IMG/VR virus record: IMGVR_UViG_2585427710_000015
DNA: 8,949 nt
Direction: 5' to 3' (one strand)
Source of the DNA: a virus
Lineage: Duplodnaviria; Heunggongvirae; Uroviricota; Caudoviricetes
The translations under genes and the position numbers were made by a program. Each line of letters begins with the position of its first letter. Position 1 is the first letter of the stretch. Below the pieces are notes generated by a model. It did not search any database, was not told the origin of the DNA, and saw only the letters and a list, made by a program, of their open reading frames with translations. Shown here in pieces: positions 1 to 6,978 of the stretch.

Positions 1-696
1 CAGGATATTCACGAAGCAAGCCTGAACGAGTCGGTTAAATCAGAGCAGTCACCGCGGGTGGTGCTCTGGGAAATCGACCTGACGGTGCAGGGCGGTGAGC
101 GGTATTTTTTCTGCAATGAGCTGAATGAAAAAGGGGAGCCGGTGACCTGGCAGGGGCGTGAATATCAGGCGTACCCGATTGAGGGGAGTGGCTTTGAGAT
201 GAACGGAAAGGGCAGCAGTGCCCGCCCGTCGCTGACGGTGTCCAATCTTTTCGGCCTTGTCACCGGGATGGCGGAGGATTTGCAGAGCCTGGTGGGGGCC
301 ACGGTGGTCCGTCGCCGGGTGTATGCGCGTTTTCTGGATGCGGTGAACTTTGTGGCAGGCAATCCTGAGGCAGACCCGGAGCAGGAGCTGAGAGACCGCT
401 GGGTGGTGGAGCAGATGTCAGAGCTGACGGCCATGACAGCCTCGTTTGTGCTGGCAACACCGACGGAGACGGACGGAGCGCTGTTTCCCGGTCGCATCAT
501 GCTGGCGAACACCTGTATGTGGGATTACCGGGGCGATGAATGCGGGTATAACGGTCCGGCAGTGGCGGATGAGTTCGACAACCCCACCACGGATATCCGG
601 AAGGACAGATGCAGTAAATGCATGCGCGGGTGTGAGATGCGCGGCATGGTGGCTAATTTTGGCGGTTTCCTTTCCATTAATAAACTTTCGCAGTAA
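1..696 (+). CDS. L: Tail tip assembly protein L (gpL-like), 5'-partial: the frame is open from base 1 and the true start lies upstream of the window
   Basis: Frame 1 is open from position 1 (QDIHEASLNESVKSEQSPRVVLWEIDLT...) to TAA at 694-696. Translation matches my recollection of lambda gpL along its length (VLWEIDLT..GERYFFCNE..NEKGEPVTWQGR..GRIMLANTC.W.YRGDECGY..FGGFLSINKLSQ). The C-terminal Cys cluster (C..C..CSKC..C) is present. Synteny L-K-I-J supports the call. Similarity is recalled, not computed. Confidence 0.9.
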   Translation, partial: QDIHEASLNESVKSEQSPRVVLWEIDLTVQGGERYFFCNELNEKGEPVTWQGREYQAYPIEGSGFEMNGKGSSARPSLTVSNLFGLVTGMAEDLQSLVGATVVRRRVYARFLDAVNFVAGNPEADPEQELRDRWVVEQMSELTAMTASFVLATPTETDGALFPGRIMLANTCMWDYRGDECGYNGPAVADEFDNPTTDIRKDRCSKCMRGCEMRGMVANFGGFLSINKLSQ

Positions 697-706
697 ATCC
701 CGTTTT

Positions 707-1450
707 ATGACACAGACTGAATCAGCGATTCTGGCGCATGCCCGGCGGTGTGCGCCTGCGGAGTCGTGCGGCTTCGTGGTGAGAACGCCGGAGGGGGAGC
801 GGTATCAGCCGTGTGTGAATATCTCTGCAGAGCCGGAGGCGTATTTTCGTATTGCACCGGAAGACTGGCTGCGGGCAGAGATGCAGGGGGAGATTGTGGC
901 ACTGGTCCACAGTCATCCCGGTGGTCTGCCCTGGCTGAGCGAGGCCGACCGGCGGCTGCAGATAAAAAGTGCACTGCCCTGGTGGCTGGTCTGCCGGGGG
1001 GAAATTCACAAATTCCGCTGTGTGCCGCACCTGACCGGACGGCGCTTTGAACACGGGGTGACGGACTGTTACACCCTGTTCCGGGATGCATACCATCTGG
1101 CGGGGATTGAGATGCCGGATTTTCACCGTGAGGATGACTGGTGGCGCAACGGTCAGAACCTGTACCTGGACAATATGGAGGCCACCGGCTTTTACCGGGT
1201 GTCCCTGTCCTCTGCACAGGCAGGCGATATCCTGCTGTGCTGCTTTGGCGCATCGGTGCCGAATCATGCCGCCATTTACTGTGGCAACGGTGAGCTGCTT
1301 CACCATATACCTGAACAACTGAGTAAACGGGAGAGGTATTCAGAGAAATGGCAACGACGAACGCATTCTGTCTGGCGTCACCGCCACTGGTCCGCATCTG
1401 CCTTCACGGGGATTTACAACGATTTGGTCGCCGCATCAGTCTGTATGTGA
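707..1450 (+). CDS. K: Tail tip assembly protein K (gpK-like) with MPN/JAMM and NlpC/P60 motifs
   Basis: ATG at 707 lies 10 nt after the L stop with no obvious SD, so translational coupling is possible. The ORF runs to 1450 (247 aa). A JAMM-type motif H-S-H-x7-S-x2-D (HSHPGGLPWLSEAD) and NlpC/P60-like Cys (DCYTLF) and His (NHAAIY) are visible. The 3' end overlaps I by 103 nt in another frame, as I recall for lambda K/I. The listed ORF beginning at 446 is the same frame running back into L; 707 is the first ATG after the L stop. An internal start (e.g. the ATG at 881) cannot be excluded. Confidence 0.88.
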   Translation: MTQTESAILAHARRCAPAESCGFVVRTPEGERYQPCVNISAEPEAYFRIAPEDWLRAEMQGEIVALVHSHPGGLPWLSEADRRLQIKSALPWWLVCRGEIHKFRCVPHLTGRRFEHGVTDCYTLFRDAYHLAGIEMPDFHREDDWWRNGQNLYLDNMEATGFYRVSLSSAQAGDILLCCFGASVPNHAAIYCGNGELLHHIPEQLSKRERYSEKWQRRTHSVWRHRHWSASAFTGIYNDLVAASVCM

Positions 1451-2028
1451 ACACGGCAGCGGAGGCCATCCGTGCCCTGTCGCAGCAGGTGCCGGGATTC
1501 CGCTGTCAGATGAACGAAGGCTGGTACCAGATACGTATTGCCGGTGAGGATACCGCGCCGGAGGCGGTGTATGCCCGTCTTCATGAACCGCTGAGCGGGA
1601 GGGCCGTGATTCATATTGTACCGAGGCTGGCAGGGGCCGGGGGAAATGGTGTTTTTCAGGTGGTGCTGGGGGTTGCAGCGATTGTCGGGTCATTTTTCAC
1701 TGGTGGTGCAACACTGGCGGCATGGGGCGCAGCCCTGAGTGCCGGAGGGCTGACTGCCACCACGATGCTGTTCTCACTGGGTGCCAGCATGATACTGGGT
1801 GGTGTGGCTCAGATGCTGGCCCCGAAGGCAACGACGCCGGAGTATAAAAGCACGGATAACGGCAGACAGAACACGTATTTTTCGTCACTGGATAACATGA
1901 TTGCCCAGGGGAACCCGATGCCGGTGCCTTACGGTGAAATGCTGGTTGGTTCACGACGGATATCCCAGGACATCAGCACCCGTGATGAGGGCGGAGACGG
2001 GAAAGTGGTGGTTATCGGACGGGGATAA
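1348..2028 (+). CDS. I: Tail tip assembly protein I (gpI-like)
   Basis: 226-aa ORF. The motifs RICL.GDLQRFGRRI, AVIHIVPR.AGA and the Gly/Ala-rich hydrophobic stretch (GSFFTGGATLAAWGAA..GG.T) plus the C-terminal NTYFSSLDNM.AQGN..PV.YGEM.VGSR..SQ.IST.DEG match recalled lambda gpI. The start overlaps the K 3' end by 103 nt. Confidence 0.9.
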   Translation: MATTNAFCLASPPLVRICLHGDLQRFGRRISLYVNTAAEAIRALSQQVPGFRCQMNEGWYQIRIAGEDTAPEAVYARLHEPLSGRAVIHIVPRLAGAGGNGVFQVVLGVAAIVGSFFTGGATLAAWGAALSAGGLTATTMLFSLGASMILGGVAQMLAPKATTPEYKSTDNGRQNTYFSSLDNMIAQGNPMPVPYGEMLVGSRRISQDISTRDEGGDGKVVVIGRG

Positions 2029-2066
2029 AAATAAAAAAATCCCGCAGAGTTAGCGGAGCTGCGGGA
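2029..2066 (-). terminator. Intrinsic (rho-independent) terminator for leftward transcription, placed immediately right of the I stop codon
   Basis: Read on the minus strand: UCCCGCAG-cuccgcuaacu-CUGCGGGA followed by UUUUUUUAUUUUUAU. The stem is 8 bp and GC-rich (+ coords 2040-2047 pairing with 2059-2066), the loop 11 nt, and the U-tract is the complement of + 2029-2039. On the + strand the same hairpin is followed by AGAGAUACG with no U-run, so it terminates only leftward transcripts. Confidence 0.7.
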
Positions 2067-2127
2067 AGAGATACGAAGATTAACTGTAAGGAGTTATTAT
2101 TATGTCACAGCAAAAAAACGGTAACGC
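2029..2127 (-). ncRNA. Candidate ~95-100 nt small RNA, transcribed leftward from the promoter at 2134-2161 and ending at the terminator at 2029-2066
   Basis: A near-consensus sigma70 promoter and an intrinsic terminator on the same (minus) strand bracket about 95 nt with no plausible ORF. Predicted RNA, 5' end approximate: cugcguuaccguuuuuuugcugugacauaauaauaacuccuuacaguuaaucuucguaucucuucccgcagcuccgcuaacucugcgggauuuuuuuauuuuuau. The TSS is predicted and the RNA is hypothetical until detected. Confidence 0.4.
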
Positions 2128-2140
2128 AGAGAAATTATAA
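2102..2140 (+). CDS. Tiny ORF (12 codons, MSQQKNGNAEKL) with a strong Shine-Dalgarno; possibly a leader peptide or a remnant translation start, and possibly not expressed
   Basis: TAAGGAG at 2087-2093 is followed after 8 nt by ATG at 2102, and the ORF ends at TAA 2138-2140. The SD and the whole ORF are fully complementary to the candidate minus-strand RNA. The peptide is short and hydrophilic and does not look like a type I toxin. Confidence 0.15.
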   Translation: MSQQKNGNAEKL

Positions 2141-2161
2141 GCGCCACTGGGATTTTGTGAA
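2134..2161 (-). promoter_or_regulatory. Sigma70-like promoter on the minus strand: -35 TTCACA, 16-bp spacer, -10 TATAAT
   Basis: On the minus strand, -35 TTCACA is the reverse complement of + 2156-2161 (5/6 match to TTGACA). The 16-bp spacer is the complement of + 2140-2155. The -10 TATAAT is the complement of + 2134-2139 and is a perfect consensus hexamer. The upstream minus-strand sequence, which is the 27-bp repeat, is AT-rich and could act as an UP-like element. Predicted TSS is near + coordinate 2127. Confidence 0.55.
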
Positions 2162-2187
2162 AATGTGAAGAATTTCAGAAATTTTAT
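2161..2187. repeat. Copy 1 of a perfect 27-bp direct repeat AAATGTGAAGAATTTCAGAAATTTTAT containing a CRP-box-like TGTGA-N6-TCAGA
   Basis: Identical 27-mers occur at 2161-2187 and 2340-2366. The flanking sequence 5' of each copy is similar but degenerate (cactgggattttg versus cacgggaatttg). The core resembles the CRP consensus AAATGTGA-N6-TCACATTT, with AAATGTGA exact and TCAGA versus TCACA. Confidence 0.8.
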
Positions 2188-2339
2188 GTTGCGGAGCTGA
2201 ACTAAAAAACGCTCCCGCAATACACCTGGATATTAACGGGAGGAACGAATAGTCACCTTAAGGAGTTGCGATTAATTGCTTTTATTGACCGCAGGTAATC
2301 TACCCATCCGGCAAGGTTTCCTCCACGGGAATTTGCCGG

Positions 2340-2366
2340 AAATGTGAAGAATTTCAGAAATTTTAT
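2340..2366. repeat. Copy 2 of the perfect 27-bp direct repeat (CRP-box-like TGTGA-N6-TCAGA)
   Basis: Identical to 2161-2187 and 179 bp downstream of it. It lies 12 nt upstream of the rightward terminator hairpin and 86 nt upstream of the J start codon. Confidence 0.8.
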
Positions 2367-2377
2367 TCCGTCATGAC

Positions 2378-2409
2378 ACAGGCACCCTCCGGGGTGCCTG
2401 TCGTTTTCT
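2378..2409 (+). terminator. Intrinsic terminator on the + strand, 43 nt upstream of the J start
   Basis: Perfect 10-bp inverted repeat ACAGGCACCC (2378-2387) / GGGTGCCTGT (2392-2401) with a 4-nt loop UCCG, followed by CGUUUUCUG. On the minus strand no U-run follows the hairpin. Confidence 0.6.
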
Positions 2410-2451
2410 GGCATAAACAGATTCAGACATCAGACAGGAGAGGGGGACAGA

Positions 2452-5400
2452 GTGGGTAAAGGGGGTGGCAAGGGGCACACACCGCGTGAGGCGAAGGACA
2501 ATCTCAAATCCACGCAGATGATGAGCGTGATTGATGCCATCGGTGAGGGACCGGTGGAAGGCCCGGTGAAGGGACTGCAGAGTATTCTGGTGAACAAAAC
2601 CCCGCTGACGGACACGGACGGTAATCCCGTGATACACGGTGTGACCGCCGTCTGGCGTGCCGGGGAGCAGGAGCAGACACCGCCGGAAGGCTTTGAGTCC
2701 TCCGGTGCTGAAACCGCACTGGGCGTGGAAGTGACGAAGGCAAAGCCGGTGACGCGCACCATTACGTCCGCGAACATTGACCGCCTGCGGGTCACCTTCG
2801 GGGTGCAGTCACTGTTGGAGACCACCTCAAAGGGCGACCGTAATCCCTCTTCTGTCCGACTGCTGATTCAGTTGCAGCGTAACGGTAACTGGGTGACGGA
2901 AAAGGATGTCACCATTAACGGCAAGACCACCTCACAGTACCTGGCGTCGGTGATTCTGGAGAATCTGCCTGAGCGGCCCTTTAACATCCGGATGGTCCGG
3001 GAGACGGCGGACAGCACCACGGACCAGCTGCAGAATAAGACGCTCTGGTCGTCATACACCGAAATCATCGATGTGAAACAGTGCTACCCGAACACGGCCA
3101 TTGTGGGGCTGCAGGTGGATGCGGAGCAGTTCGGCGGCCAGCAGATGACGGTGAACTACCATATCCGCGGTCGCATCATCCAGGTGCCGTCAAACTATGA
3201 CCCGGAAAAACGCACCTACAGCGGTATCTGGGACGGCAGCCTGAAACCGGCATACAGCAATAACCCGGCCTGGTGCCTGTGGGACATGCTGACTCACCCG
3301 CGCTACGGGATGGGAAAACGCCTGGGGGCCGCGGATGTGGACAAGTGGGCGCTGTATGCCATCGGGCAGTACTGCGACCAGACGGTCCCGGATGGTTTCG
3401 GGGGCACAGAGCCGCGGATGACCTTTAATGCGTACCTGTCACAGCAGCGTAAGGTGTGGGATGTCCTGGGGGATTTCTGCTCGGCGATGCGCTGTATGCC
3501 GGTATGGAACGGTCAGACGCTGACGTTCGTTCAGGACCGTCCGTCGGATGTGGTGTGGCCGTACACGAACAGCGATGTGGTGGTGGATGATAACGGCGTG
3601 GGGTTCCGCTACAGCTTCAGCGCCCTGAAGGACCGCCACACGGCGGTGGAGGTGAATTACACCGACCCGCAGAACGGCTGGCAGACCTCCACGGAACTGG
3701 TGGAAGACCCGGAAGCCATACTGCGCTACGGGCGCAACCTGCTGAAGATGGATGCGTTCGGCTGTACCAGCCGCGGTCAGGCCCACCGTGCCGGACTGTG
3801 GGTGATAAAGACAGAACTGCTGGAAACGCAGACGGTGGATTTCACGCTCGGGTCTCAGGGGCTGCGGCACACACCCGGTGACATCATTGAAATCTGTGAT
3901 AACGACTATGCCGGGACCCTGACCGGCGGACGCATCCTGTCCATCGATGCCGCCAGCCGCACACTGACGCTGGACCGTGAGGTGACACTGCCGGAAGCAG
4001 GTACATCGACGGTGAACCTGATTAACGGCCGTGGTAAGCCGGTGCGCGTGGACATCACTGCACAACCCGCCCCGGACCGGATACAGGTCAGCACCCTGCC
4101 TGATGGTGTGGAGACATACGGTGTATGGGGACTCTCCCTGCCGTCACTGCGTCGTCGCCTGTTCCGCTGTGTCTCCATCCGGGAAAACACGGACGGCACC
4201 TTTGCCATCACGGCGGTGCAGCACGTACCGGAAAAAGAAGCCATCGTGGATAACGGGGCCCGCTTTGAGCCGATGTCCGGCTCACTGAACAGCGTCATCC
4301 CGCCGGCGGTGCAGCACCTCACGGTGGAGGTGAGTGCCTCAGACGGCCAGTATCTGGCGCTGGCGAAATGGGACACGCCGCGGGTGGTGAAGGGTGTGCG
4401 CTTCAGTCTGCGCCTGACCAGCGGAAGCGGTGAAAACAGCCGTCTGGTGACCAGCGCCATCACTGCCGACACGGAGCACCGTTTCAGTGGCCTGCCGCCC
4501 GGGGAATACACCCTGACGGTCAGGGCGATAAACAGCTACGGCCAGCAGGGCGAACCTGCCACCACCACGTTCCGGATTAACGCACCGGCAGCACCGGCCA
4601 GCATTGAACTGACGCCGGGGTATTATCAGATAACGGCGGTCCCGCATCTTACGGTGTATGACCCGACGGTACAATTTGAGTTCTGGTTTTCGGAGGCAAA
4701 AGTCGCAGACACCGCACAGGTGGAAACGTCCGGCCGTTATCTGGGTACCGGCAGCCAGTGGAGTGTCTCCGGCCCGCACATTAAGCCCGGGAAGGATTTC
4801 TGGTTTTATGTGCGCAGCGTCAACCTGGTGGGGAAATCTGCGTTTGTGGAGGCCAGCGGGCAGGCCAGCAATGATGGTGAAGGGTATCTGGAAATTTTCC
4901 GTGGGCTGATAGATGAGGCGCTGCTGGGGAAGGCACTGAAAGAGCGTATTGATGCGTCAGCCCTGCGTACTGAGGTCACGCAACTGGAAGAAGACATCCG
5001 CCAGCGGCTGGAGACGGATGTTGCGGAAGTGACCCGAAAAATCGGGGAGGCGGAAAACAGCCTCACGCAGCTGGTTGCGAAAAAGAATGAGGACCAGACG
5101 CTGGCCATCGCGCAGGTGAGTCAGCAGGTGGACCGGGTGAGCAGTGAAATCACACAGACAGTCAGCCAGAGCACGGAGGAAAACGCCAGGCAGATAGCGC
5201 AGGTCCGCCAGTACGTGGATGACAAAGGGAGTGAAATCACCTCGACCACGGATAAAAAGCTGGAAGACCAGAGCGCGACCATACAGCAGATACAGCAGGT
5301 CCAGTCAGACACGAATGATGAGCTGGCAGCGCTGTACATGCTGAAGGTGCAGAAAACGAAAAACGGCATTCCGTATGTTGCCGGTATTGGTGCGGGGATT

Positions 5401-6147
5401 GAGGATGCTGATGGCCAGACGCTGAGCAATATTCTGCTGCAGGCGGACCGTATCGCGATGATTACCCCGGAGAACGGCAACACCACGCCGCTATTTGTGG
5501 CGCAGGGGAATCAGTTGTTCATGAACGATGTGTTCCTGAAGCGGCTGTTTGCGGTGAGTATCACCTCGTCCGGCAATCCCCCGACGTTTTCCCTGACGCC
5601 GGAGGGCAGGCTGACGGCCCGCAATGCGGACATCAGCGGACATATCAGTGCGAACTCGGGCACGCTCAATAATGTTGTGATAGCGGAGAACTGTACGATA
5701 AATGGCACGCTGAAAGCGGGAAACATCATCGGGGATCTTATCAAGGGCGGGAGTGGCGCTTTCCCGCGTCAGAATGAGGGCAGTGTGAACTGGCCTTCCG
5801 GAACGCGCACGTTCACTGTGTATGATGATCACCCGTTTGACCGCCAGATAGTGGTACTTCCGCTGACATTTCGCGGAAGCAGGCGTACCGACAGCGGCAG
5901 AACAACATATTCGATGTGTTATCTGAAGGTGCTGATGAACGGTGCAGTGATTTATGACGGCGTGGCGAATGATGCACCTCAGGTTTTCGCCCGAATTGTG
6001 GATATGCGTGCGGGAGGTGGACACGTAACCCTGACATTCACGGTCACGTCCACACGGCATTCGGGAAATATTCCGCCGGATACGTTTGCCAGTGATGTAC
6101 AGGTTCTTGTGATGAAAAAGGGGGCATCAGGTATCAGTATCAGCTGA
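2452..6147 (+). CDS. J: Central tail fibre / host specificity protein J (gpJ-like), 1231 aa
   Basis: GTG start at 2452, preceded by AGGAG at 2436-2440 and a G-rich stretch. The N-terminus [22 protein letters not shown] and the protein throughout are collinear with recalled lambda gpJ (1132 aa). The C-terminus (...[21 protein letters not shown]) is also lambda-like. There is about 100 aa of extra heptad-like sequence around residues 809-980 relative to lambda. Confidence 0.95.
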
Positions 6148-6166
6148 CGGTTTATTAACCCGGACG

Positions 6167-6190
6167 GGCACCCGAAGTGGTGCCTTTTTT
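6167..6190 (+). terminator. Intrinsic terminator after J
   Basis: Stem GGCACC (6167-6172) / GGUGCC (6179-6184), 6-nt loop, followed by UUUUUUAUU (6185-6193). It starts 20 nt after the J stop (TGA 6145-6147). Confidence 0.6.
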
Positions 6191-6215: not shown

Positions 6216-6839
6216 ATGCGGTATTTATACGGAGCCATTTTATTTTTTACCACCCTGCCGGCAGTAATGACTTTTCCTGCACAGGCTGCAGGCGGACACG
6301 GTGCATTTTCCGTTGGATATGCTCAGGTTCACCCGGGCGGCGTGCCGGTATTGTCCGGTACCGGTGCCCGTACAGGTGATTTAAAAGGGATCAACGTGAA
6401 ATACCGTTATGAATTCACGGACCATCTGGGCGGCATAGCCTCGCTGAGTTACGCCTCTGCGAAAAAGAGCAGAACCACGATGACCGGGGATAAGGCATTT
6501 CATTATGAAAGTCTGCGTGGCCGTTATGTGAGCCTGATGGCGGGGCCGGTCTGGCAGGTCAGTGAGCAGCTCAGTCTTTATGGCATGGCCGGGATGGCGC
6601 ACACCCGCTGGTCTGACAGTGTTCAGGATTACCGGCGTGATGAAGTGACACCGGGGGATGTCAGGGTGACCACCACTGCCAGTGATGGCCATTCTGCACG
6701 TCATCTGACGCTGGCATGGGGGGCAGGGCTTCAGTTTAATCCGGCGGATACGGTGGCGGTTGATCTTGCGTACGAAGTGGCCGGTCATGGTGACTGGCGA
6801 ACGGATGCGTTTATTGTTGGGATTGGATACCGTTTCTGA
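6216..6839 (+). CDS. lom: Lom-like outer membrane protein (Ail/Lom/PagC/Rck family beta-barrel), a lysogenic-conversion moron
   Basis: ATG at 6216 with AAAGAGG 5 nt upstream. N-terminal signal peptide MRYLYGAILFFTTLPAVMTFPAQA followed by AGGHG. GGHG.F.VGY.QV.PG, LKGINVKYRYE.TD, FHYESLRGRYVS.MAGPV, GDWRTD.FIVG.GY.F match recalled lambda Lom. The position between J and stf matches lambda. The longer ORF from 6177 lacks an RBS and would begin inside the terminator's U-tract. Confidence 0.85.
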   Translation: MRYLYGAILFFTTLPAVMTFPAQAAGGHGAFSVGYAQVHPGGVPVLSGTGARTGDLKGINVKYRYEFTDHLGGIASLSYASAKKSRTTMTGDKAFHYESLRGRYVSLMAGPVWQVSEQLSLYGMAGMAHTRWSDSVQDYRRDEVTPGDVRVTTTASDGHSARHLTLAWGAGLQFNPADTVAVDLAYEVAGHGDWRTDAFIVGIGYRF

Positions 6840-6850
6840 CGGCAGATACA

Positions 6851-6879
6851 GCTTTATCTTCTGTAAATATTGGTATAAT
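6851..6879 (+). promoter_or_regulatory. Candidate sigma70 promoter with extended -10 (TGgTATAAT) between lom and stf
   Basis: TG at 6871-6872, one base, then a perfect TATAAT at 6874-6879. The -35 is weak (GCTTTA at 6851-6856 with a 17-bp spacer). Predicted TSS is near 6886, about 105 nt upstream of the stf ATG and about 60 nt upstream of the next terminator hairpin. Confidence 0.45.
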
Positions 6880-6944
6880 GAGCATGTTCATCACACCTTA
6901 TGGAGTGAACTGCGTCTGAGGAAACGTAAAGTTACACTGTCCTG

Positions 6945-6978
6945 AAGCCCGTGGCATTACTGCTGCGGGCTTTTTTAT
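6945..6978 (+). terminator. Intrinsic terminator downstream of lom, 13 nt upstream of the stf start
   Basis: Imperfect extended hairpin AAGCCCG-UG-GCA uuac UGC-UG-CGGGCUU (6946-6971) followed by UUUUUAUU. No U-run follows it on the minus strand. Confidence 0.6.

Follow-up and report, generated by a model that had tools for sequence, protein, structure and literature searches.

A terminator-like hairpin at the J-side edge of a PasB-family small RNA island in the late tail operon of lambdoid prophages

Results

Tail genes and terminator-like hairpins of the late operon

The stretch of DNA that we analyzed (8949 nt, hereafter the window) covers the distal part of the late (tail) genes in a lambdoid prophage; the host is an E. 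coli of Shiga-toxin or attaching-effacing type. Protein domains were assigned with Pfam and gene junctions were inspected with a terminator scan and RNA folding, which gives the following layout from gene L to gene stf:

58-696: L (Pfam)
707-1450: K (Pfam)
1348-2028, plus strand: tail assembly gene I (Pfam Lambda_tail_I)
2378-2401, plus strand: predicted I-J terminator hairpin (stem inspection, folding and consensus structure on 22 distinct variants)
2402-2411, plus strand: U-rich tail CGTTTTCTGG, weaker than the TGTTTTTG(G/T) typical of relatives
2412-2451, plus strand: J leader with ribosome-binding site (AGGAG 2436-2440, GAGGGGGA 2440-2447), unpaired in the fold of 2367-2454
2452-6147, plus strand: tail tip/host specificity gene J (GTG start; seven GpJ domains, Pfam)
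6166-6185, plus strand: J-lom terminator-like hairpin, then TTTTTT (terminator scan)
6216-6839: Lom (Pfam)
6944-6973, plus strand: lom-stf terminator-like hairpin, then TTTTTT (terminator scan)
6991 onwards: Stf (Pfam)

With hairpins at I-J, J-lom and lom-stf, the latter two of them strong, all gene junctions from I to stf are punctuated. Late transcripts of lambda and Stx phages are made from pR' by Q-modified polymerase, which passes downstream terminators (review PMC8065619), and the terminators at J-lom and lom-stf fit an operon that depends on such processive antitermination (PMC8065619). The J-lom stem (GGGCACC/GGTGCCT) and the I-J hairpin have a GGCACC/GGTGCC core in common, and a TATAAT (6874-6879) precedes the hairpin at lom-stf. 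Within the J leader, positions 2421-2435 hold about two copies of the 7-nt unit CAGACAT, to which some relatives (loci L030, L029 and L048) add one or two more; the number of copies alters the distance between the hairpin and the ribosome-binding site.

The I-J spacer is an island of PasB-family sRNA genes

Genes I and J are separated by 423 nt of non-coding DNA with a G+C content of 37-47%, compared to 55-65% in the flanking genes. On the minus strand of this island, two units follow each other in tandem; a 44-nt upstream block (2144-2187 in one, 2323-2366 in the other) and a second repeat are common to both. Their parts are as follows:

2204-2366, minus strand: sRNA unit A, J-proximal, PasB-like (upstream block 2323-2366)
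2267-2259, minus strand: AACUCCUUA of unit A
2242-2212, minus strand: terminator of unit A (CTCCCG..CGGGAG)
2209-2204, minus strand: T6 of unit A
2033-2187, minus strand: sRNA unit B, I-proximal, PasB/EcOnc22 orthologue (upstream block 2144-2187)
2161-2156, minus strand: -35 of unit B (TTCACA)
2139-2134, minus strand: -10 of unit B (TATAAT), with a predicted start at about 2127
2095-2087, minus strand: AACUCCUUA of unit B
2065-2041, minus strand: terminator of unit B
2039-2033, minus strand: T7 of unit B

The promoter of unit B (TTCACA-16-TATAAT) is a near-consensus sigma-70 promoter and the only promoter-like site in the window (two registers). Its AACUCCUUA motif is single-stranded in the fold, and its terminator (CCCGCAG...CUGCGGG, then U7, ending at 2033) matches the northern probe of PasB (PMC8550237 table S6). 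PasB is an 83-nt Hfq-dependent sRNA of EPEC E2348/69 (PMC8550237) that occupies the same I-J locus (Pearl Mizrahi 2021; Zhu/Shabalina/Storz 2026): the coordinates of PMC8550237 table S6 place it between E2348C_1436 and E2348C_1437, which are homologues of I and J, and the E2348/69 locus aligns with unit B across promoter, body/seed and terminator. An Rfam scan of the whole window with E up to 1 gave zero matches; PasB is absent from Rfam. Unit A has a terminator stem that differs from that of unit B, of a type also found in the single-unit locus L055, and a poor -10, which makes its expression uncertain.

EcOnc22, EcOnc23 and EcOnc24 of EHEC Sakai are Hfq-dependent prophage sRNAs (Tree 2014) that probably occupy the same I-J locus. 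EcOnc22, an Hfq-bound orphan sRNA, was detected as a band of about 85 nt, destabilised without hfq, with EcOnc23 and EcOnc24 as homologues (Tree 2014 Table S2). Taken at face value, the published coordinates place EcOnc22 on the minus strand of the hairpin, a placement explained by a shift of about +135 between NC_002695.1 and NC_002695.2. We calibrated this shift on the tR' 3' end of StxS1; the HnrS terminator is compatible with it (127-144). Once shifted, the Hfq crosslinking peak of EcOnc22 falls on the PasB-like body of Sakai Sp15 (locus L085, NC_002695.2 2901900-2903600, positions 951-1011), where the spacer has the same layout as in the window. We infer that EcOnc22 is the PasB-like gene of the Sakai Sp15 I-J spacer and that, by homology, EcOnc23 in Sp14 and EcOnc24 in Sp11 are likewise PasB-like. 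No link between the names EcOnc22 and PasB was found in the consulted papers on these sRNAs.

Other identities for the genes of the island were discarded. HnrS (EcOnc10-12), initially considered because it occurs in up to 9 copies and targets a ribosome-binding site, maps between the Rz endopeptidase and terminase genes and not to the I-J spacer, and AgvB and AsxR are located at the pR' moron site. A plus-strand mini-ORF of 12 codons (ATG at 2102) follows a Shine-Dalgarno-like TAAGGAG; it is probably spurious, its frame and start being unconserved and the motif being the complement of the sRNA seed. Both units carry the anti-Shine-Dalgarno-like AACUCCUUA, so that the plus strand reads TAAGGAGTT (2087-2095 and 2259-2267) and resembles a ribosome-binding site; the AACUCCUUA region is the PasB seed proposed by Zhu et al. 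2026. We conclude that the I-J island is an sRNA moron, that is, a self-contained inserted gene cassette. The initial annotation, in which this sRNA-gene content was not recognised, had suggested that a plus-strand RNA might originate in the island. This suggestion was not borne out, as the promoter scan of 2029-2378 found no plus-strand promoter and the genes of the island are minus-strand PasB-family sRNAs.

The collected loci include tandem arrays of divergent PasB-family units, with two units in the window, three in L061 and four in L029, L036, L052 and L080, and the units of the arrays are interspersed with remnants of the gene I 3' end. According to Zhu et al. 2026, pasB is single-copy per prophage with a minimum spacing of 28 kb between copies; given this description, PasB-family arrays appear to be undescribed. 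The upstream block is the most conserved part of each sRNA unit and contains TGTGA-N6-TCAGA (2164-2179 and 2343-2358). This motif agrees with the CRP core in 9 out of 10 positions, its centre being about 44.5 bp upstream of the predicted start of unit B, a non-canonical distance. PasB of EPEC is lower in DMEM than in LB (PMC8550237), a difference that would fit a putative cAMP-CRP control.

A stable hairpin with an interrupted U tract precedes J

The I-J hairpin is formed by the arms ACAGGCACCC (2378-2387) and GGGTGCCTGT (2392-2401) around the loop TCCG. It lies just beyond the upstream block of unit A and on the opposite strand, outside the minus-strand interval from promoter to terminator that makes up a PasB/EcOnc22 transcript. 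Given its strand and its location upstream of the sRNA promoter, it belongs to no sRNA. The letters of 2378-2411 agree with what the initial annotation had described between I and J, namely a perfect 10-bp stem, a 4-nt loop and a U-rich tail; 7 of the stem pairs are G-C. The distance to J is the 43 nt given there, with the last T of the tail at 2409 and the GTG of J at 2452. The hairpin thus has the GC-rich stem (about 5-14 bp) and short loop of an intrinsic terminator. RNA of the region 2370-2415 (46 nt) folds at -27.2 kcal/mol (z = -5.5), and none of 200 dinucleotide shuffles was as stable. The hairpin itself has an energy of -20.8 kcal/mol on the plus strand versus -18.9 kcal/mol on the minus strand. 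It is the sole perfect inverted repeat of at least 9 bp with a loop of 3-8 nt across the 8949 nt, and ranks second among the plus-strand terminator-like sites of the window.

The tail is the weakest U-rich tail of the hairpin family, with a C at positions 1 and 7 after the stem (CGTTTTCT in the window versus TGTTTTTT in relatives). More specifically, its TransTermHP-style score is -2.54 versus -3.8 to -4.15 for most relatives, whose tails read TGTTTTTG or TGTTTTTT. Expressed as U tracts, for which intrinsic terminators have about 7-9 nt directly 3' of the stem, the window has CGUUUUCU (5 U out of 8) and most relatives have UGUUUUUG or UGUUUUUU, with a score of about -4. Because the U tract of the window is interrupted, the efficiency of termination may be modest.

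The initial annotation had also pointed to CATAAA as a weak possible -10 of an independent promoter for J and lom. The motif is indeed located at 2412-2417, but its role as a -10 could not be sustained: the promoter scan has no match there, the -35 position reads CCGGGG, and other J-leader types have CGTAAC, AGTGAA or CATCAA instead. CATAAA therefore falls short of a conserved sigma-70 promoter for J with A2 and T6 in the -10 and a -35 at 16-18 bp.

The hairpin is a conserved module at a mosaic boundary

Relatives were collected from 80 IMG/VR loci with close J homologues and from 76 metagenome stretches matching the left flank of the hairpin, to which the Stx2a_WGPS6 phage and the E2348/69 and Sakai loci were added. 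About 126 of the collected relatives carry the hairpin, in 24 distinct 75-nt versions. Megablast against 5426 complete E. coli genomes finds the hairpin at 2485 places in 703 of them (about 13%) and the whole island at 2732 places in 780 of them; for hairpin and island alike, the copy number per genome has a median of 3 and does not exceed 9. Since the counts of the hairpin parallel those of the island, the hairpin tracks the prophage island, which contradicts the idea of a palindromic repeat (REP/BIME-like) dispersed over many unrelated intergenic contexts. None of the matched E. coli places has a RefSeq annotation of the hairpin. Strains 99-3311 and O103 ML775 carry the I-J spacer of the window on their chromosomes with 100% identity. 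In a one-genome-per-species scan with the promoter-block pattern, matches were mostly due to chance and E. albertii was the only credible host other than E. coli; the other true matches were on short contigs of unrelated taxa and are probably contamination.

Spacers vary in size with the number of sRNA units: 234-260 nt for one unit, 421-425 nt for two (the type of the window), 715 nt for three and 907-929 nt for four. Throughout these spacers of one to four units, the hairpin occurs once and always at the J end, after the last unit. In E2348/69 and Sakai Sp15, the same hairpin family is likewise found directly upstream of the sRNA promoter block; no mention of this hairpin was found in the consulted papers on PasB and EcOnc22-24. 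To the right of the T tract, sequences are alignable for about 15 nt and then diverge into at least four different J-leader types. The joining of the same hairpin to at least four J leaders makes it a conserved module at a mosaic boundary.

Other spacers have a different content at this position. In L013 and in L091 of E. albertii, the PasB promoter block is joined at the equivalent position to an unrelated hairpin and T run; the hairpin of the L013 type reads CCCCGGTATC-TGCT-GATACCGGGG, then TTTCTCTTT. In L005-type loci (13 IMG/VR loci, spacer of 848-851 nt), a minus-strand gene with its own terminator takes the place of both PasB promoter and hairpin, and the PasB body and terminator are kept as a promoterless remnant. 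We take the product of this gene, recognised by eye, to be a periplasmic Cu,Zn superoxide dismutase (sodC). No such hairpin was found before J in these 13 sodC-type spacers or in mEp515, where I and J overlap, which indicates that a hairpin at I-J is not obligatory.

Sequence variation favours a hairpin of the plus-strand RNA

Pair counts and the comparison between strands were derived from an alignment of 22 distinct variants (about 126 copies). RNAalifold predicts 10 out of 10 stem pairs from these variants. Standard pairing is found in 98.2% of cells on the plus strand versus 93.6% on the minus strand, and G.U wobbles occupy 13 cells on the plus strand and 3 on the minus strand. Pair 28-37 passes from C-G (13 variants) through U.G (4 variants, among them the most frequent one in the metagenomes, with 27 copies) to U-A (3 variants). 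A G.U of the plus strand is an A.C mismatch when read on the minus strand, and in the commonest variants such mismatches weaken the minus-strand hairpin by 2 to 7 kcal/mol. One variant, L049 (4 copies), goes in the opposite direction, with a C.A on the plus strand that is a G.U on the minus strand. Loops differ between variants (TCCG, TCAG, CCCG, CGGTGA), the stem and T tract being retained, and alignment A1 shows no change at three tail T's, T45-T47 in the row of the window.

This pattern, an RNA-level structure on the sense strand, has a modest statistical weight: the covariation score is reached by 39 of 500 column shuffles and a two-sided change is seen in one pair only. Covariation is thin because the aligned sequences are close relatives. 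The length of the T run varies by indels, which excludes a coding reading; the frames of two minus-strand ORFs over the hairpin (2253-2414, 53 aa; 2371-2637, 88 aa) are broken by these indels in relatives.

The strand asymmetry bears directly on a function in the minus-strand RNA, in which the hairpin would stop or stabilise antisense transcripts coming from J before they reach the sRNA promoter. The palindrome does fold on that strand, at the -18.9 kcal/mol given above, and the L013-type hairpin is flanked by an A run as well as a T run and could be bidirectional. However, the minus-strand 3' flank (GTCATGACGGAATAA; GUCAUGACGGAAUAA in all variants) has a tail score of -2.1 and contains a U run in no variant, and the commonest variants lose the 2 to 7 kcal/mol mentioned above through the change from G.U to A.C. 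We regard such a function as extremely improbable.

Alternatively, the palindrome could be read at the DNA level, as a protein-binding site (operator or activator) for the minus-strand sRNA promoter, about 70 to 95 bp upstream of the sRNA start. Its place directly upstream of the highly conserved promoter block AATGTGAAGAnnTTCAGAAnTTTTATTC would suit such a site, as would the 5 of 10 stem pairs that never change among the variants. Yet the changes that do occur keep RNA pairing through G.U on one strand only, the neighbouring T tract is conserved, and arm length and spacing vary, from 10-bp arms with a 4-nt loop here to 9-bp arms with the 6-nt loop CGGTGA in E2348/69. In addition, arrays of two to four units contain internal units with this promoter block and no hairpin, which implies that the sRNA promoter does not need it. 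We therefore find a protein-binding palindrome highly improbable. Taken together, the variation favours a plus-strand RNA hairpin with a U tract over an operator palindrome or a minus-strand element.

Hairpins at the same junction in lambda and other phages

Lambda (NC_001416, about 15465-15490) has an unannotated GC hairpin, AAACCGCC-TGCG-GGCGGTTTTGTC, with a T run before J; in its I-J gap of 60 nt, this element (AAACCGCC-TGCG-GGCGGTTTTGTCATTT) is 25 nt ahead of the ATG of J. PhiR29_1 has the stem of lambda with the loop TCAG, again with a T run, before J. HK633, HK225 and Klebsiella phage 020009 have AGCCACC...GGTGGC then TTTTTTT about 10 nt before J, and GenBank annotates the I-J hairpins of HK633 (JQ086377, 14462-14484) and HK225 (JQ086371, 15508-15532) as rho-independent terminators, so that this kind of element is already known. 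In HK225 (L187), an extra hypothetical ORF of 88 aa (144-410) lies between I and the annotated terminator, so that here, too, the I-J junction acts as a hot spot for insertions.

The hairpin of the window resembles those of HK633, HK225 and lambda in its position, on the late strand past the stop of I and 10-50 nt before the start of J, and in its build, a GC-rich stem of 7-10 bp with a 4-nt loop and a T run (interrupted in the window) in a Q-antiterminated late operon. It differs from them in having no sequence similarity (ACAGGCACCC versus AACCGCC in lambda and AGCCACC in the HK phages), in the 350-nt sRNA island between I and the predicted terminator, and in the distance from stem to J start (50 nt versus about 10-25 nt). 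Given that the stems differ, any equivalence with the lambda and HK terminators is positional and functional only. By sequence comparison, a terminator-like hairpin at I-J is a recurrent, already annotated but non-universal feature of lambdoid tail operons, among which the hairpin of the window appears as a new sequence family. For a lambda I-J terminator, or for maps of late-operon 3' ends, nothing usable was found in the literature. The G.U asymmetry, the T tract, the varied loops and these annotated positional analogues speak for the rightward intrinsic-terminator-like element within the late tail operon that the initial annotation had proposed.

The analogues also bear on the reading of the hairpin as a relic without function, or as a palindrome that stands at a mosaic junction by chance. 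Perfect stems of at least 10 bp arise in 17 of 300 dinucleotide shuffles of the window (5.7%, with no requirement on tail, GC or position), and some spacer types are without the hairpin. Such a reading nevertheless has to contend with the retention of the hairpin in 703 genomes and at 2485 places between variable sequence on both sides, with pairing-preserving substitutions, and with independent analogues in other phages, and we judge it very unlikely.

We also considered an anti-PasB RNA, a special case of the terminator reading to which a regulatory output is added. Here the hairpin would end a transcript (the I 3'UTR, with an Hfq-binding end) that pairs with and removes the lysogeny-phase sRNAs during late or leaky rightward transcription. 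A transcript ending at the hairpin is complementary to all sRNA units of the spacer over their full length, the usual module for Hfq binding is a GC hairpin with a U tail (cited in PMC4104026), and the regulatory RNA StxS, which arises from termination at tR' of the same phages, offers a precedent (PMC7547250). On the other hand, the EHEC orphan-site table (Tree 2014 Table S2) contains no late-strand Hfq peak at the corresponding positions, Q-modified polymerase should not halt at the hairpin, and the promoter scan has no plus-strand promoter upstream. Moreover, lambda and HK633, which are free of PasB, carry a terminator at the same place, and the hairpin thus needs no PasB explanation. An anti-PasB RNA is accordingly unlikely. 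Were it to exist, the prophage could erase its own lysogeny-phase sRNAs at the lytic switch; alternatively, the transcript could be cleaved by the sRNAs at that switch.

Discussion

We have described a hairpin with a U tract at the junction of I and J that is likely, on the evidence of sequence and its variation, to be a rightward rho-independent terminator in the late operon of a lambdoid prophage. Because Q-modified polymerase passes terminators (PMC8065619), we infer that the hairpin stops unmodified polymerase only. In this it would be like tR' of lambda and Stx phages, an intrinsic terminator inside the pR' unit that is relevant to unmodified polymerase alone. It is unlike tR' in that tR' directly follows pR' and yields a defined RNA (6S or StxS), whereas the promoter scan of the window has no plus-strand promoter upstream of the hairpin. 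Phage morons are flanked by a promoter and a terminator of their own, and the hairpin, too, marks the boundary of a moron; since the moron genes next to it run on the opposite strand, it is not the moron's own terminator.

The following sequence of events may be proposed. In the prophage, polymerase without Q modification would move rightward through I and the antisense strand of the sRNA island and pause on the U tract, where the 10-bp hairpin would release it before J. In the lysogen, J, lom and stf would thereby stand behind a default-off barrier. Once the prophage is induced, Q-modified polymerase coming from pR' would ignore the I-J terminator, as it must likewise ignore the terminators at J-lom and lom-stf. 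In the read-through mRNA, the hairpin would remain as an intercistronic stem-loop that leaves the J ribosome-binding site accessible and could shield the upstream message from 3' exonucleases. The promoter scan found no plus-strand promoter in the window that would feed the terminator in a lysogen, which counts against the putative insulating role, and in EPEC RNA-seq the counts of I and J are too low for showing a drop across the hairpin.

Taken alone, the hairpin is of little importance, being one more probable intrinsic terminator in a late operon that depends on Q. More noteworthy within the spacer are the tandem PasB-family sRNA genes. The hairpin does offer a sharp and conserved marker of where the I-J moron hot spot, the insertion site of PasB-family sRNA genes (alone or in arrays) and of sodC, ends on the J side. 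Together with the hairpins downstream, it would place a stop signal for unmodified polymerase ahead of each of the genes J, lom and stf. If termination at the hairpin is efficient, it would restrict how far any polymerase other than the Q-modified form can express J, lom and stf in lysogens of EHEC and EPEC.
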